Of a stretch of 64,000 nt of DNA, positions 18,914 to 32,922 are shown piece by piece. The notes below the pieces were generated by a model. That model saw only the letters and a program-made list of their open reading frames with translations. It did not search any database and was not told the origin of the DNA. The stretch lies in the sequence record PV611058; one strand, written 5' to 3'. This DNA comes from Escherichia phage WPEC3. Position 1 is the first letter of the stretch; each line of letters begins with the position of its first letter. The position numbers were made by a program, and so were the translations under genes.

Positions 18914-18964
18914 GTTGATGAAATGATTATAGCAAAAAGGGCTGACTAGTGTCAACCCTTTTGT
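18914..18964 (-). promoter_or_regulatory. PeSL-like cassette: hairpin (gggctgac-tagt-gtcaaccc) with embedded TTGACT -35, then TATAAT -10 (minus strand)
   Basis: Minus-strand reading: ...gggTTGACactagtcagccctttttgcTATAATcatttcatc, ~29 nt upstream of the ATG at 18897. Confidence 0.55.
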
Positions 18965-19315
18965 TTTAGATAATTTGTACTTCATCATAGATCTTGCACG
19001 ATTTGCTTTCCTGGGTTATTTGTAAATTTATACCTAGTGGAATCAAGAATTATTTTAAATCTTCTTTCACATAGTACTCATATAATTTAATTACTTTTGT
19101 ATATTGAATCACATTGTCTACGCAATAGTTTATAGTATGCTTTACCACGAGGAAATAGTTTACGTGTATGTTCTCCTTTTCCCCACGGTCCTAAATATGT
19201 TTTACGCGTGTCGTGATTATTAAAGTTATTTGATACAGTTGATTTTGTACCAATCGGATCTTCCTTACTAAAATAGATAGACATTATAAAGTTCTCTCTT
19301 CACTAAGTTTTTGTA

Positions 19316-20866
19316 TTAAACTATTTCGGTAGCACCATACTTAAAGTAAATTTCCTTAATCATTTCAAGATTATGGATGCTTGTAGTTTCAGACCAACCA
19401 TCCTCCATCAATTCACGTTCAATAATACCTTTCGTATTATGGATTTTAATATTTTCAGTTTGAAACAGTTTCTTACATTCAGTTTCGGCAGCAATACAAT
19501 CAACTGAATTTTCAAATTTAAAAGAGCTAATACGTTTTATATCATAATAACATTTTAAGTTTTGTTCATATTCACGACGACCGAGGATTGTTTCAATTCC
19601 ATATTTTAGCCCAATATATTCACCTGCATTACATATACCACTAATATATGCAATTTTTTGATTGCGATGTGCCTTACGAGGATTGCCACATCCACGCAAA
19701 TGTATAGATGGTGTTTGCCAGAATTCATCACCACTTTCTGGATCAATAATACACACATTAGTACGGGCATCAATATACTCTACTTTACTGTAATCATATT
19801 GTTCATCGTGAATTTCGTTAGCCCTGTTGATAAATTCATCAATTGACATTTTATTTTTCAGGCCAGTTGATATATTAGCACGATCATTATTACCACATCC
19901 CATCAAATGTGATGATGGTGTTTGCCAGAATTCACCATATACTGGATCTATAATACATACCTTAGTACTGTTGTTTACGTATACGACCTTACTATAATCA
20001 TACAGATTATCATGCACCAAATTGGCCTTCTCGATAAATTCATCAAGTGTTAAGCGTTTACTCTGTGCCGTTTTTTCAAAACCACGGATTGGGTTTCCAT
20101 GACCTTTCCAATGGTAGATTGGTTCTTGCCAGAATTCACCATATACTGGATCTACAATACATACCTTAGTCCATGCACCAGTATACTCCACTTTACTGTA
20201 GTCATATAAATGACCATGTACTGCACGAGAACGTTCAATAAAAACTTCGTTGGTGAATGTTTTATTTACTGAAGTTCCTATACGCCCACGTTCCATGTTA
20301 CCATGCTTGGATTTTAAATGGTCATATGGCGTTTGCCAGAATTCACCATACACTGGATCAATAATGCATACTGGAGTTTTACTATTAACATATTCTACGT
20401 TTGAATAATCGAACGTATTTCCAAAACGTTCGATAGCTTCAGCTATAAATGTTTCAGTTGTTTTTGATTTAAGTTTTTTACCATTTTCAATGGCACGTTG
20501 TGGGCTACCTGCACCTTTTAAATGGGAGCTGGGTTCTTGCCAGAATTCACCATACACTGGATCAATAATACATACCTTAGTGCTATTATTTTTATAAACA
20601 ACTTTACTATAATCATAGAGGTTGTTATGAACTTTTTCTGCTCGTTCTATAAACGTTTGGGTGGTTAATTTGCCAACACCTGAACGATATGGATTCCCCT
20701 GACCGCGAATGTGATGTGACGGAGTTTGCCAGAATTCACCATACACCGGATCAATAATGCATACTGGTTCTTTAGCTTTTACATACACTGCTTTTTCGTA
20801 ATTATAGAGATCACCATGTACATTTCGTGCAGCAATTAAAAAAGTTTCTTGGTCGGTAACACGCAT
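19316..20866 (-). CDS. Protein composed of six tandem ~85-aa repeats (motif F-I-x-x-A-x-x-V/I-H-x-x-x-Y-D/N-Y-S-K-V-x-Y...K-V-C-I-I-D-P-V-Y-G-E-F-W-Q-x-P-x-x-H-L-x-G-x-G-N-P), function unknown
   Basis: 516 aa; the motif CIIDPVYGEFWQTP...H..G.GNP recurs 6 times at regular spacing, followed by a ~110-aa non-repetitive C-terminal domain. Confidence 0.6.
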   Translation of the reverse strand: MRVTDQETFLIAARNVHGDLYNYEKAVYVKAKEPVCIIDPVYGEFWQTPSHHIRGQGNPYRSGVGKLTTQTFIERAEKVHNNLYDYSKVVYKNNSTKVCIIDPVYGEFWQEPSSHLKGAGSPQRAIENGKKLKSKTTETFIAEAIERFGNTFDYSNVEYVNSKTPVCIIDPVYGEFWQTPYDHLKSKHGNMERGRIGTSVNKTFTNEVFIERSRAVHGHLYDYSKVEYTGAWTKVCIVDPVYGEFWQEPIYHWKGHGNPIRGFEKTAQSKRLTLDEFIEKANLVHDNLYDYSKVVYVNNSTKVCIIDPVYGEFWQTPSSHLMGCGNNDRANISTGLKNKMSIDEFINRANEIHDEQYDYSKVEYIDARTNVCIIDPESGDEFWQTPSIHLRGCGNPRKAHRNQKIAYISGICNAGEYIGLKYGIETILGRREYEQNLKCYYDIKRISSFKFENSVDCIAAETECKKLFQTENIKIHNTKGIIERELMEDGWSETTSIHNLEMIKEIYFKYGATEIV

Positions 20867-20894
20867 TTTCTTTATCCCTAGTACGTTTCATTTC

Positions 20895-20938
20895 GATAGA
20901 GCTATAATAGCAAAAGGGCTGACCGAAGTCAACTCTTT
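20895..20938 (-). promoter_or_regulatory. PeSL-like cassette (hairpin gggctgac-cgaa-gtcaac; -10 TATTAT on minus strand)
   Basis: Variant of the conserved cassette, upstream of the ORF starting at 20866. Confidence 0.5.
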
Positions 20939-21157
20939 GATATGATAATATAATCATTCCATAAATTATATATATTGTTTTCAACACAATCATCATCGCT
21001 TAATTCTATAATTGACGAGATAAGTTCTGATAAGGTTTGTGTGTTCAAAACCGTATCACGATGTCTCAACCACCATTTCATGGTGAGTGTTCGGATTTTG
21101 TACGGATTGTTTGAAAACTTGTATCTAGAAGTGTCAAGTATCATTTTTAATCTCTAT

Positions 21158-30300: not shown

Positions 30301-30853
30301 TCATTAAACACAATTTGGGCTTTATCGCATTCAAAACCCATATGCATTCTTTGTAAGTTGCTATTATAGCATCTAAATGCTCAGTTACAATGCTTTCTTG
30401 AAAATATTCTTCTTCATTGAGCTTTGCTAAATTAGTCACATCACATGTAGGTACTATAGGTCTGGATTGTACACCCATTCCATTATTGATATTGGTAAAA
30501 TGTAAAAAATTGTACTTCACCACACCGTTATCTACACTTATGATACATGTCAAATGTTCCAACTCAGTTAGTTCGGTATTACAAGTGACATGAATGAATC
30601 CAGCATTATAGGCTCTATAATCATCTACTAATATCTCAAAATCATTACGTTTAAATATAAGTGAAATGAGTTTGTCTTGTGGTTTAACCTTCTGAAATTT
30701 TACCGAATTTACGTATGATACTTTAATCTTAGATGAAATTATCTTTTTACTAAGTGCAGTTAATTCTTCTTTAGCCTTAAAAGTTAAAGTTATAGGTCTA
30801 AATCTAGAACTTTTGTTCTTCTTTGATACTTTGAACTTACCTTTTCTATTCAT
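30281..30853 (-). CDS. Hypothetical protein
   Basis: 190-aa ORF, basic N-terminus. Confidence 0.45.
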   Translation of the reverse strand: MNRKGKFKVSKKNKSSRFRPITLTFKAKEELTALSKKIISSKIKVSYVNSVKFQKVKPQDKLISLIFKRNDFEILVDDYRAYNAGFIHVTCNTELTELEHLTCIISVDNGVVKYNFLHFTNINNGMGVQSRPIVPTCDVTNLAKLNEEEYFQESIVTEHLDAIIATYKECIWVLNAIKPKLCLMNVVRDL

Positions 30854-32412
30854 TAATTAAACCCCACATAAAGTAAAAGGGTTGGAATAATACCAACCCT
30901 ATATCTTTTATTTTTTAATAGATTCATAAAGCAGAAACAACCAAATAAACATTGATGAACAAACTACTACTGGGATTAATGTAAATTCAGTAAAGAATAA
31001 AAGTATTCCATAAGTTAGTATGCAACATAAGTTTACGTACATAATTGCTTCTGCATTTTTATTTTTCATTTTATATGCAATGAATGTTGGTGACCACATT
31101 ACCAAAAATGCAAACAACGCACATATGATGATTATAGTTTCCATATTACACCTCCGTAAAATAATGTTCTGTACTGCTATTATTTACAGAGAATATCTGA
31201 AAAATTGATCTAGATCAATTTTTAGTCACTTTACAATTTGAATCTTTTTTGTACTGAACAATCACATTGTTCTTAAGGAAGATGATGGTCCCATAGGAAC
31301 CTTGGGCTGCAACTTCAACAATATGGTTCTTATATGTTTCAGTATATCCTTCCATCTCGTTGATACACACTACATGATACTTTGGTTTAGCACATACAAC
31401 AGTACTCAAGAATAGCAGTACTAGTACTAGATATTTCATTTTATTACCTTATAAACAAGAACAGGAATCCTTTTACGGATTCCTATAATTTAGTCCTTTA
31501 ATGTACCATTGTGTAAACGATTATACACATCATTGCGACGCAACTCAACAATATCTTCAGCGTACTTCATTGTAAACGCCCATGCTTTTGGATGCACATT
31601 AAGCTTCATACGAATGCGATTCTTCATCAATTCACCGCTTAGGCGAACAAACTCATGAACACCACGACTTCCGTACTCTGAAATCAAATCATTGATGTAC
31701 ATGTTGCGAAGGGTTTCGTCTGTACATTCTTTAACCATTTCTACGTCTGCCACGATGCTTGCATTTACTGAAGTACTGATCATTTTAAGTTACCTTATTT
31801 GAATTGGACTGTAATTTTATCACCTTCAACTACGAACTTACAGTCGTAGCGACGGGCCATATCCATATACATATGCTCAGAATACCACGGAACATCAATA
31901 ACTGGATGCTCTGCGTATTGTAGCACTTCACGGTCACCAACAGTAGTGATGACGAAAGGAATGTTCATCTCTCGCAAAAACAACTCAGCACCTGGTGAAC
32001 GATTGACAAACTCAGTGTCGTTACGCAAAGTAAAACCATTGTATTGTAATTTAAGCTTCATGATTATCCTCTAAGTTAATACCATTCTTTTAAACCATCA
32101 AGTTCGGCTATGTGAGTAATTATAACACAGATAACACTCAGGTCAAGCATTATTTGCTCATAATTTAATTTTATTCTATCATCACTGTATGCTCTAAAAA
32201 CAACATCAAAGTCAAAGTAGTTATCGTTTTCATCATTCATTGGAATGATTCTATATCTACGTCTACCATCATCATTGAATACAGTCAAACATTGTTTGAA
32301 TTTCTTCATTAACTGTGTAGTCAATGCATTGTAATATGCAACATCATATTGTGTACAACGTGGGTCATTGGGTAGATAAAACGATACAAATTTTTTTAAT
32401 TCTATTTGAGTC

Positions 32413-32853
32413 TTATCCATATACAGCCTCATGTATTACTCTTTTACTTTGGCGGTACTCATCCTTTGCTTCTCTCACTGACATGATACGAACCAGATTG
32501 GCACTACCACAATAGTACTGAACCTGACTACGACCAATGTCAACATGATTATCAGGAACTTCATATACTGATACAGCAAACCCTGCACGATGTAATTTAC
32601 CCAAGTCCATAGTAAAGAACTTAAACAAATCATTCAAACTCTGACAGCCAAATGCCCAGCCACGTTTGATTGAATAGATTCCATCTTCAGTTGGTTCTGG
32701 TTGGAATTGCGAAGGCGTGGTCATGCACAAACGGTCAAATCCATTTTTAGTACTGTATCGTGAAGAGTACCGTGCGAACGGCCCTACTGTTTTTGCTGGA
32801 TCTAAGTTAGGTTCAATATAACTGAATTTAAGTTCAAAACGATATACGTACAT
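32413..32853 (-). CDS. Hypothetical protein
   Basis: 146-aa ORF preceded by a PeSL-like cassette. Confidence 0.5.
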   Translation of the reverse strand: MYVYRFELKFSYIEPNLDPAKTVGPFARYSSRYSTKNGFDRLCMTTPSQFQPEPTEDGIYSIKRGWAFGCQSLNDLFKFFTMDLGKLHRAGFAVSVYEVPDNHVDIGRSQVQYYCGSANLVRIMSVREAKDEYRQSKRVIHEAVYG

Positions 32854-32868
32854 AATTAAAATCCCCAG

Positions 32869-32922
32869 TAGTTGATGAAATAATTATAACAAAAAAGGTT
32901 GACCGAAGTCAACCTTTATTTT
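32869..32922 (-). promoter_or_regulatory. PeSL-like cassette (hairpin aggttgac-cgaa-gtcaacct; TATAAT)
   Basis: Plus-strand text agttgatgaaataattataacaaaaaaggttgaccgaagtcaaccttta; same family as 21614-21662. Confidence 0.55.

Follow-up and report, generated by a model that had tools for sequence, protein, structure and literature searches.

In the 64,000-nucleotide (nt) stretch of Escherichia phage WPEC3 (sequence record PV611058) analyzed here, and hereafter referred to as the window, a short hairpin sequence recurs among genes for small proteins. The question raised by this locus is whether the repeats end transcripts, start them or do both, and whether they take part in the shuffling of the genes that they separate; a sequence-only reading of the window had proposed all of this, and had likened the repeats to the promoter early stem-loop (PeSL) cassettes of T4-type phages. 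Our answer is that they are very likely composite terminator/promoter cassettes of the PeSL type, located among the early, small genes of an Asteriusvirus. Each cassette probably stops transcription of the preceding gene and restarts it for the following one.

The core sequence GACCGAAGTCAACC of the plus strand (GGTTGACTTCGGTC on the minus strand) was searched for with up to two mismatches allowed. Eight matches were obtained (at 20921, 21642, 26264, 26946, 28527, 29307, 32901 and 41026), all in a single orientation, against 0.15 expected, and none of 100 shuffled sequences reached eight, which rules out a chance or low-complexity repeat. All eight are oriented with the coding strand, which is the minus strand from about 16 kb onward in the window. 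A ninth copy of the hairpin (18939-18958) has an identical stem and the loop ACUA, and differs from the quoted core at four bases. The hairpin copies are all found at 18.9-41 kb on the minus strand, among open reading frames (ORFs) of 40-150 amino acids (aa). The shared minus-strand core was thereby confirmed, and every range listed by the sequence-only reading contains its element. The tenth listed site, at 59.3 kb, had been taken for a degenerate copy; it is a promoter-only relative (59276-59303), and no hairpin is present there.

Read on the minus strand, a cassette of about 60 nt consists of an A-tract of 3-6 A, the hairpin GGGTTGAC-UUCG-GUCARCCC, a T-run, in most copies TGC-TATAAT with CATTTCATC behind it, and finally a Shine-Dalgarno sequence and ATG. 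The stem has 8 base pairs, with a predicted energy of -7.1 to -12.7 kcal/mol when taken alone. As had been anticipated, the -35 element is embedded in the hairpin: TTGACT (TTGACA in copy 1) is made up of five stem bases and the first loop base, and the spacer of 17-18 nt that leads to the -10 element is occupied by the 3′ arm and the T-run. Promoter hexamers agreeing with the consensus at 10-12 of 12 positions, at 17-18 nt spacing, are present in seven of the nine hairpin copies; five of these have TATAAT as the -10 hexamer, the other two having TATTAT and TATACT, and an extended -10 TG is found in five of the nine. The trinucleotide CAT is conserved about 7 nt past the -10, at the expected transcription start, and the start codon follows 26-47 nt beyond the -10, with a GAGG-type Shine-Dalgarno sequence ahead of it. 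For 45-nt minus-strand RNAs from the copies, predicted folding energies range from -9.8 to -19.8 kcal/mol (z -2.5 to -5.5). Concerted evolution of the copies within a genome was considered as well; by inspection of the window and its relatives, the copies cluster by genomic position and not by genome.

The cassettes had been described as intergenic, which does not hold strictly. In four copies the upstream ORF stops with a TAA 7 nt ahead of the stem. In three others its stop is the TGA within TTGAC itself (20929, 21650 and 32909), so that the gene runs into the cassette. Likewise, seven of the eight copies to which a dual function had been ascribed carry both parts, but the copy at 26941-26960 has no acceptable sigma70 -10 (TGTAAA/TAAATA) and is terminator-only. 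The copy at 41021-41040, already considered terminator-only, proved to be a perfect hairpin with a T-run and no -10. As terminator-only and promoter-only copies are both found, the two halves of the cassette are independent. Judged by its sequence, cassette 5, which contains hairpin 26941-26960, looks like the terminator of the gene for a 503-aa virion protein (stop at 26970). The GTAAATA beside this hairpin (26930-26936, minus strand) resembles the late-promoter-like (A/C/G)TAAATA listed for phage CBB, and phages 121Q, SHEFM2K, G17 and PBECO4 have it conserved at the corresponding site; cassette 5 may therefore be a "late" variant. The terminator-only copy at 41 kb starts 7 nt past the stop codon of a phage gene (41048-42013, minus strand) for a 321-aa sigma70-family protein, which matches the Pfam domains Sigma70_r2 and r3 and gave no Pfam match for region 4 at E <= 0.001. 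Next to the hairpin of cassette 2 (20916-20935), the plus strand carries at 20949-20962 an inverted and incomplete "-10 plus leader" sequence, TATAATCATTCCAT; it may be a recombination scar.

Taking this anatomy into account, a mode of action can be proposed. Polymerase arriving from the upstream gene would transcribe the A-tract, the 8-bp G+C-clamped C(UUCG)G hairpin and the U-tract, and would terminate. In the DNA, the same 5′ arm and first loop base would act as the -35, and the 3′ arm with the T-run, often ending in TG, as the spacer before the -10; with such a layout, host sigma70 polymerase would re-initiate 20-30 nt before the Shine-Dalgarno sequence of the next gene. Gene modules would thus be insulated, each with an early promoter of its own. 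As many of the modules have about 60 nt of near-identical sequence on their flanks, the cassettes could in addition be crossover points, or tolerated junctions, for module gain, loss and swap, for which the comparative support is partial.

For this last proposal, related genomes were compared. By sequence identity, the phage of the window is an Asteriusvirus, that is, a 121Q/RaK2-like jumbo coliphage: over 18-34 kb it shares 98-99% identity with the Asteriusvirus coliphages fEgEco12, vB_Ec-M-J, Ecwhy_1 and CMSTMSU, and 85-88% with 121Q and PBECO4. Its genome is therefore not of the T4 type (Straboviridae). Syntenic cassettes were found in all six relatives fetched, and the gene content of the cassette region varies between them. 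The variable module between cassette 1 and the endonuclease V gene is present as a whole in CMSTMSU only (99.5%) among the phage records searched, while other relatives have different modules or none in that slot. CMSTMSU is 98.4% identical to the window across 12.5-35.4 kb, the sole structural difference being the HNH endonuclease gene next to cassette 3; in this slot CMSTMSU and Ecwhy_1 have about 266 nt of unrelated sequence instead, and the gene is absent in 121Q.

Pairwise BLAST of seven genomes across the cassette region revealed about 13 distinct rearrangements. Five of the 13 have at least one end within 45 nt of a cassette, and two have both. Counted by ends, 7 of 26 lie that close, which is a significant excess over a uniform-sequence null (p about 1e-4) but shows no significant enrichment when gene junctions are taken as the null (p = 0.28). 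One case is that of fEgEco12, in which a single cassette separates the 121Q_223 homologue from endonuclease V. At the same site Ecwhy_1, 121Q and G17 carry 2.1-2.85 kb with a full cassette at one end and a half cassette at the other; the distal copy, which is the half one, consists of the 5′ arm, the loop and GGT. The fEgEco12 flanking alignments (identity 98-99% with Ecwhy_1, and 88-95% with 121Q and G17) overlap by 16-24 nt within its hairpin; given the distal half cassette, the junction falls in the roughly 17 nt of hairpin that these genomes have in common. In a second case, segment 28547-29278 has been replaced with both ends at cassettes, and it carries no endonuclease gene. A third case is the HNH gene difference from CMSTMSU, where homology stops at 21661, within the A-tract of cassette 3.

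The claim that the cassettes are recombination modules thus stands in part, as some breakpoints fall inside a cassette or at its edge. The same data leave room for another explanation, in which the cassettes are regulatory punctuation only, a space-saving combination of terminator and promoter, while genes are turned over by free-standing homing endonucleases and illegitimate recombination, and the breakpoints mark places where insertions are tolerated. It accounts for the lack of enrichment over gene junctions and for the eight of 13 rearrangements that have no cassette end. Two variable slots moreover hold endonuclease genes and could move by homing: between cassette 1 and endonuclease V, the window (516 aa, phrog_681/559), 121Q, PBECO4 and SHEFM2K all have a gene of endonuclease type, and the other slot holds the HNH endonuclease. 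What it does not readily account for is the crossover in about 17 nt of shared hairpin that distinguishes fEgEco12 from Ecwhy_1, 121Q and G17, by which a full cassette is regenerated from a half and a full one, nor the replacement of 28547-29278. Degraded half-PeSLs next to indels, like those seen here, are also described in the PeSL literature (PMC4122927). We regard a purely punctuating role as quite possible, though not as the probable case; an active role of the cassettes in recombination has, on present comparisons, about even odds. Apart from the cassettes, an unrelated terminator-like hairpin, AGGGTTGG-TATTATT-CCAACCCT followed by TTTT (30878-30900, minus strand), is located about 20 nt from a breakpoint (window position 30858) common to 121Q, SHEFM2K, G17 and PBECO4.

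The coupling of hairpin and promoter was then looked for outside the window. A scan of IMG/VR with the 14-mer GTTGACTTCGGTCA returned mostly chance matches in coding DNA, about 15 of 120 being true cassettes; as it was of little use, it was replaced by scans with the exact 20-mer hairpin GGGTTGACTTCGGTCAGCCC. This 20-mer is present in 34 IMG/VR stretches, at 43 unique sites, and at 41 of them a -10-like hexamer is found 16-19 nt away, nearly always at 17-18 nt. Among 185,579 bacterial and archaeal species, each represented by a single genome, it occurs at nine sites, of which seven are a plain hairpin with a T-run and two have a -10-like hexamer. Judging from these counts, the hairpin alone is a generic terminator, which in phages is almost always combined with a promoter. 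One unrelated phage contig (L049 and L136; IMGVR_UViG_3300025759_000061, 118.8 kb) has at least five copies of hairpin plus -10, of the form GGGTTGACTCCGGTCAGCCC-TTCTGGCATTAT.

Several features of the hairpin bear on whether it acts as RNA. Plus-strand RNAs fold more weakly than those of the minus strand (-14.1 vs. -19.8 kcal/mol and, for cassette 4, -6.5 vs. -16.3 kcal/mol). The window, ten relatives and IMG/VR contigs together supplied 87 unique hairpin contexts, wobble pairs of either strand being accepted. Non-Watson-Crick pairs in them comprise 88 G.U against 9 A.C as read in the sense RNA, and the nine A.C cases are mostly palindromic copies read in reverse. The loops (UUCG in 45 contexts; also UUAG, GAAA, UAAG, UCCG, UGCG, UACG and GCGA) belong largely to the UNCG and GNRA types. 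The outermost stem pair covaries (GC 35, AU 10, GU 5), the set having been pre-selected for pairing, so that only this pattern of variation, and not the figure of 99.5% paired, is informative. The excess of G.U pairs, together with the types of tetraloop, argues for selection of the hairpin as a sense-strand RNA, presumably a terminator, and not as a DNA operator.

Not every observation agrees with the terminator/promoter reading, and the following weigh against it. Termination efficiency and promoter use are both inferred from sequence. The stem of cassette 2 is weak (-9.8 kcal/mol, z -2.5), and only three T follow that of cassette 7. As the phage encodes a sigma70-family factor of its own, the promoters are not necessarily used solely, or even mainly, by host sigma70. 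On contig L049, within about 2 kb (10723-12525), hairpin copies lack a U-tract and show no canonical terminator geometry; since hairpin and -10 are retained there, a role of the hairpin beyond intrinsic termination is possible. Such a role could be post-transcriptional, the hairpin serving mainly as a 3′-end barrier that stabilizes processed upstream mRNA instead of being an efficient intrinsic terminator. C(UUCG)G hairpins are exceptionally stable, which would suit a barrier, as would the L049 copies and the short T-run of copy 7. At 48 of 52 unique exact-hairpin sites, however, at least four T are found in the 6 nt past the stem, and the layout is as expected for a canonical intrinsic terminator; both roles could be combined, and a mainly post-transcriptional one appears unlikely. 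That the inverted repeat is instead a DNA operator, at which a dimeric phage or host protein lying over the -35 and spacer silences early promoters while the RNA hairpin is incidental, is very improbable and was rejected: a 20-bp near-palindrome over the -35 is indeed in the classic operator position, and a DNA-binding protein targeting the stem-loop motif has been speculated upon (Arbiol 2010), but the imperfections of the palindrome preserve pairing in the sense RNA only, the loops belong to stable RNA tetraloop families with a U-tract after the stem, the perfect palindrome is far rarer than the wobble form (see below), promoterless hairpins are conserved (41021-41040 and 26941-26960), and the same hairpin is a plain terminator in bacteria.

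With the composite terminator/promoter again as the preferred reading, its spread among phages was assessed. BLAST with a cassette query of 59-61 nt retrieved 138-176 phage records, from all RaK2-like genera, the KVP40-type Schizotequatrovirus and Aeromonas T4-likes, with 5-9 places per genome in Asteriusvirus and 9-12 in the KVP40 type. KVP40 (Straboviridae) has about ten near-identical cassettes, and the same cassette is present in VH7D, of the same family; at a KVP40 site (AAAAGGGTTGACTGCGGTCAGCCCTTTCGCGTATTAT) the upstream ORF also ends at the TGA of TTGAC. The composite was found as well in a Vequintavirinae phage and in the Herelleviridae Brochothrix phage ADU4, which has a Gram-positive host. 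It is further present in the record "UNVERIFIED: Stenotrophomonas phage CM1", whose origin is uncertain, as the surroundings of the site match a Bdellovibrio bacteriovorus chromosome locus (L164).

The perfect palindrome GGGTTGACTTCGGTCAACCC is found in a single stretch of IMG/VR, whereas 34 stretches have the U.G wobble form GGGTTGACTTCGGTCAGCCC, even though the predicted stem energy is equal for both (-12.7 kcal/mol); the window copy at 41021-41040 is of the rare perfect form. This preference is a small puzzle on how antisense promoter elements are avoided. Tentatively, a cassette with the identical 20-nt hairpin and a -10 hexamer 17-18 nt downstream of it, shared by the unrelated lineages of RaK2-like phages, KVP40-like Straboviridae, Vequintavirinae and Brochothrix Herelleviridae might be a mobile regulatory linker or a convergent optimum, in which the wobble possibly keeps the sense hairpin and removes a TTGAC -35 from the opposite strand; we hold this for doubtful. 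Sequence inspection of the window's own copies, which are too few, showed no clear difference in this respect.

How closely do these elements correspond to the PeSLs already described? Those of phages phi1 and RB49 have a sigma70-like promoter preceded by an AT-rich tract, and their stem-loop can occupy any of five positions, one of them over the -35; they lie ahead of small ORFs in plastic regions, promoter and terminator activity were demonstrated with lacZ fusions, and their occurrence beyond T4-like phages was left open (Arbiol 2010, PMC2839356). Here, likewise, repeats of about 50-60 nt comprise an AT-rich tract upstream of the -35, a near-consensus sigma70 promoter (TTGACT/A, 17-18 nt, TATAAT/TATTAT/TATACT, in seven of nine hairpin copies), a G/C-clamped stem-loop (8-bp stem, UUCG loop, T-run) for which termination is predicted, and a Shine-Dalgarno sequence with start codon at the 3′ end, and they crowd together in a plastic region that is rich in small ORFs of unknown function and in which close relatives differ by indels. 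The likeness proposed at the outset thus holds for the sequence-level features, but not for the phage, since this cassette lineage belongs to Asteriusvirus and not to the Straboviridae; that PeSLs were first described in T4-like phages is a matter of taxonomy and not of structure. Other differences are that a single fixed architecture (-35 in the 5′ arm, UUCG loop) is used here, in contrast to the five arrangements and polyG/polyC stems of phi1; that the copies number about ten in a genome of 350-385 kb and are confined to about 22 kb of it, whereas phi1 has about 50; and that the activities were measured for phi1/RB49, the cassettes described here being known from sequence alone. For the nt-1/KVP40 PeSLs, a stem consensus A3-4 G3-loop-C3 T3-4 and a -35 consensus TTGYVH have been published (Comeau 2014, PMC4122927). 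The former fits the AAAAGGG...CCCTTTT of the cassettes; TTGYVH does not literally fit TTGACT, and host and phage family differ. The KVP40 cassettes found here may be those of the published PeSL list.

Some of these elements have been annotated before, in pieces. The record of phage G17 has the cassette hairpins as ARNold terminators, and that of Yersinia phage fHe-Yen9-03 has a -35 and a -10 at the homologous site. For CBB, terminator Torf39 corresponds to AGGTTGACTTCGGTCGGCCT..TATACT and promoter Porf_41 contains a TTGAC hairpin (supplement, PMC5259590). These are the same physical elements as the cassettes, treated in the accessible texts and records as separate promoters and terminators, not as one repeated cassette, and with no link to gene shuffling. 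A limited collection of literature was searched, and in it no description as a composite cassette in RaK2-like phages was found; a search for Asteriusvirus transcriptomics returned unrelated papers only. PeSL-type cassettes are known from T4-like phages and are, in the literature searched, undescribed as such in this group. The promoter described for jumbo phage N1M2 is a different one, of the phiKZ type. No Rfam family covers the cassettes, the matches at gathering thresholds in the whole window being six tRNAs only. CUUCGG hairpins with the same extra-stable C(UUCG)G tetraloop were reportedly noted in intercistronic regions of phage T4 by Tuerk et al. in 1988; we know of no description of those hairpins as carrying a -35 element.

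Composite cassettes of the PeSL type would thus extend beyond T4-like phages to the RaK2/121Q-like jumbo phages and, apparently, to several other lineages of large myoviruses. In a phage group used in therapy and biocontrol, they offer an operon map for a block of uncharacterized early genes, and they indicate specific junctions of accessory gene swapping. The compact design, a -35 within a UUCG terminator, could also be a ready-made insulating part for phage engineering. Coordinates of the cassettes and of the remaining features are given in Table 1.

Table 1. Cassettes, related elements and other features in the window (-, minus strand; promoter assignments are predictions)
Feature	Position	Strand	Hairpin	Promoter	Neighbors and remarks
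Cassette 1	18915-18964	-	18939-18958 (GGGTTGAC-ACUA-GUCAGCCC)	complete; TTGACA, 18-nt spacer with TG, TATAAT 18926-18931; predicted start about 7 nt past -10	downstream 257-aa ORF (ATG 18897); 45-nt fold -17.2 kcal/mol, z -5.1
Cassette 2	20895-20938	-	20916-20935 (GAGUUGAC-UUCG-GUCAGCCC), one mismatch	TTGACT, 17-nt spacer with TG, TATTAT 20904-20909	downstream 516-aa endonuclease-like ORF (ATG 20866); upstream 71-aa ORF stops in TTGAC
Cassette 3	21614-21662	-	21637-21656	TTGACT, 18-nt spacer with TG, TATAAT 21624-21629	downstream endonuclease V (pyrimidine dimer glycosylase; ATG 21595); upstream HNH ORF stops at 21650-21652 (TGA in TTGAC); fold -19.8 kcal/mol, z -5.5
Cassette 4	26233-26285	-	26259-26278 (GGGUUGAC-UUCG-GUUGGCCC), three G.U pairs	TTGACT, 18-nt spacer with TG, TATAAT 26246-26251	ATG 26219
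Cassette 5	26930-26968	-	26941-26960 and 7 T	no sigma70 -10; GTAAATA after the T-run	
Cassette 6	28510-28545	-	28522-28541	TTGACT, 17-nt spacer, TATACT 28510-28515	downstream 503-aa virion structural protein (ATG 28481)
Cassette 7	29285-29328	-	29302-29321 (loop UUCA), T-run TTTG	TTGACT, 18-nt spacer, TATAAT 29289-29294	upstream 127-aa virion protein gene stops at 29329
Cassette 8	32869-32922	-	32896-32915 (AGGUUGAC-UUCG-GUCAACCU)	TTGACT, 18-nt spacer with TG, TATAAT 32883-32888	ATG 32853; upstream ORF stops in TTGAC
Terminator-only copy	41009-41047	-	41021-41040, perfect, and 7 T	no -10	
Promoter-only relative	59267-59303	-	none	TTGACA, 16-nt spacer ending TTTTTGC, TATAAT	leader CACTTCAG
HNH endonuclease gene	21650-22063	-			insertion immediately upstream of cassette 3; limit of homology at 21661 (A-tract of the cassette)
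Variable module, cassette 1 to endonuclease V	18965-21157	-			65-aa ORF, 516-aa endonuclease-like ORF, cassette 2, 71-aa ORF
Second promoter family, -35 starts	57783, 57362, 56603, 55710, 46142, 38653, 34691, 23825	-			
Array spacer repeats	near 2425-2546, 3671-3785, 4916-5035, 6178-6274, 7407-7524, 8655-8771, 9881-9994, 12486-12601				

Besides the cassettes, a second family of near-consensus sigma70 promoters is present on the minus strand, of the form TTGAC(T/A)-aaatagttcagtactg(a)-TATAAT-g with a conserved spacer. Those with -35 starts at 55710 and 56603 are located just upstream of tRNA-Ser genes; the six tRNA genes of the window lie at 53.5-58.5 kb. On the plus strand, about 12 paralogous ORFs, each of roughly 360-450 aa, follow one another in tandem over 107-15580, and the two that were tested (107-1309 and 14456-15580) contain RCC1-like repeats. 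Between the ORFs of the array lies a repeated segment of about 100-120 nt, which is also repeated in CMSTMSU.

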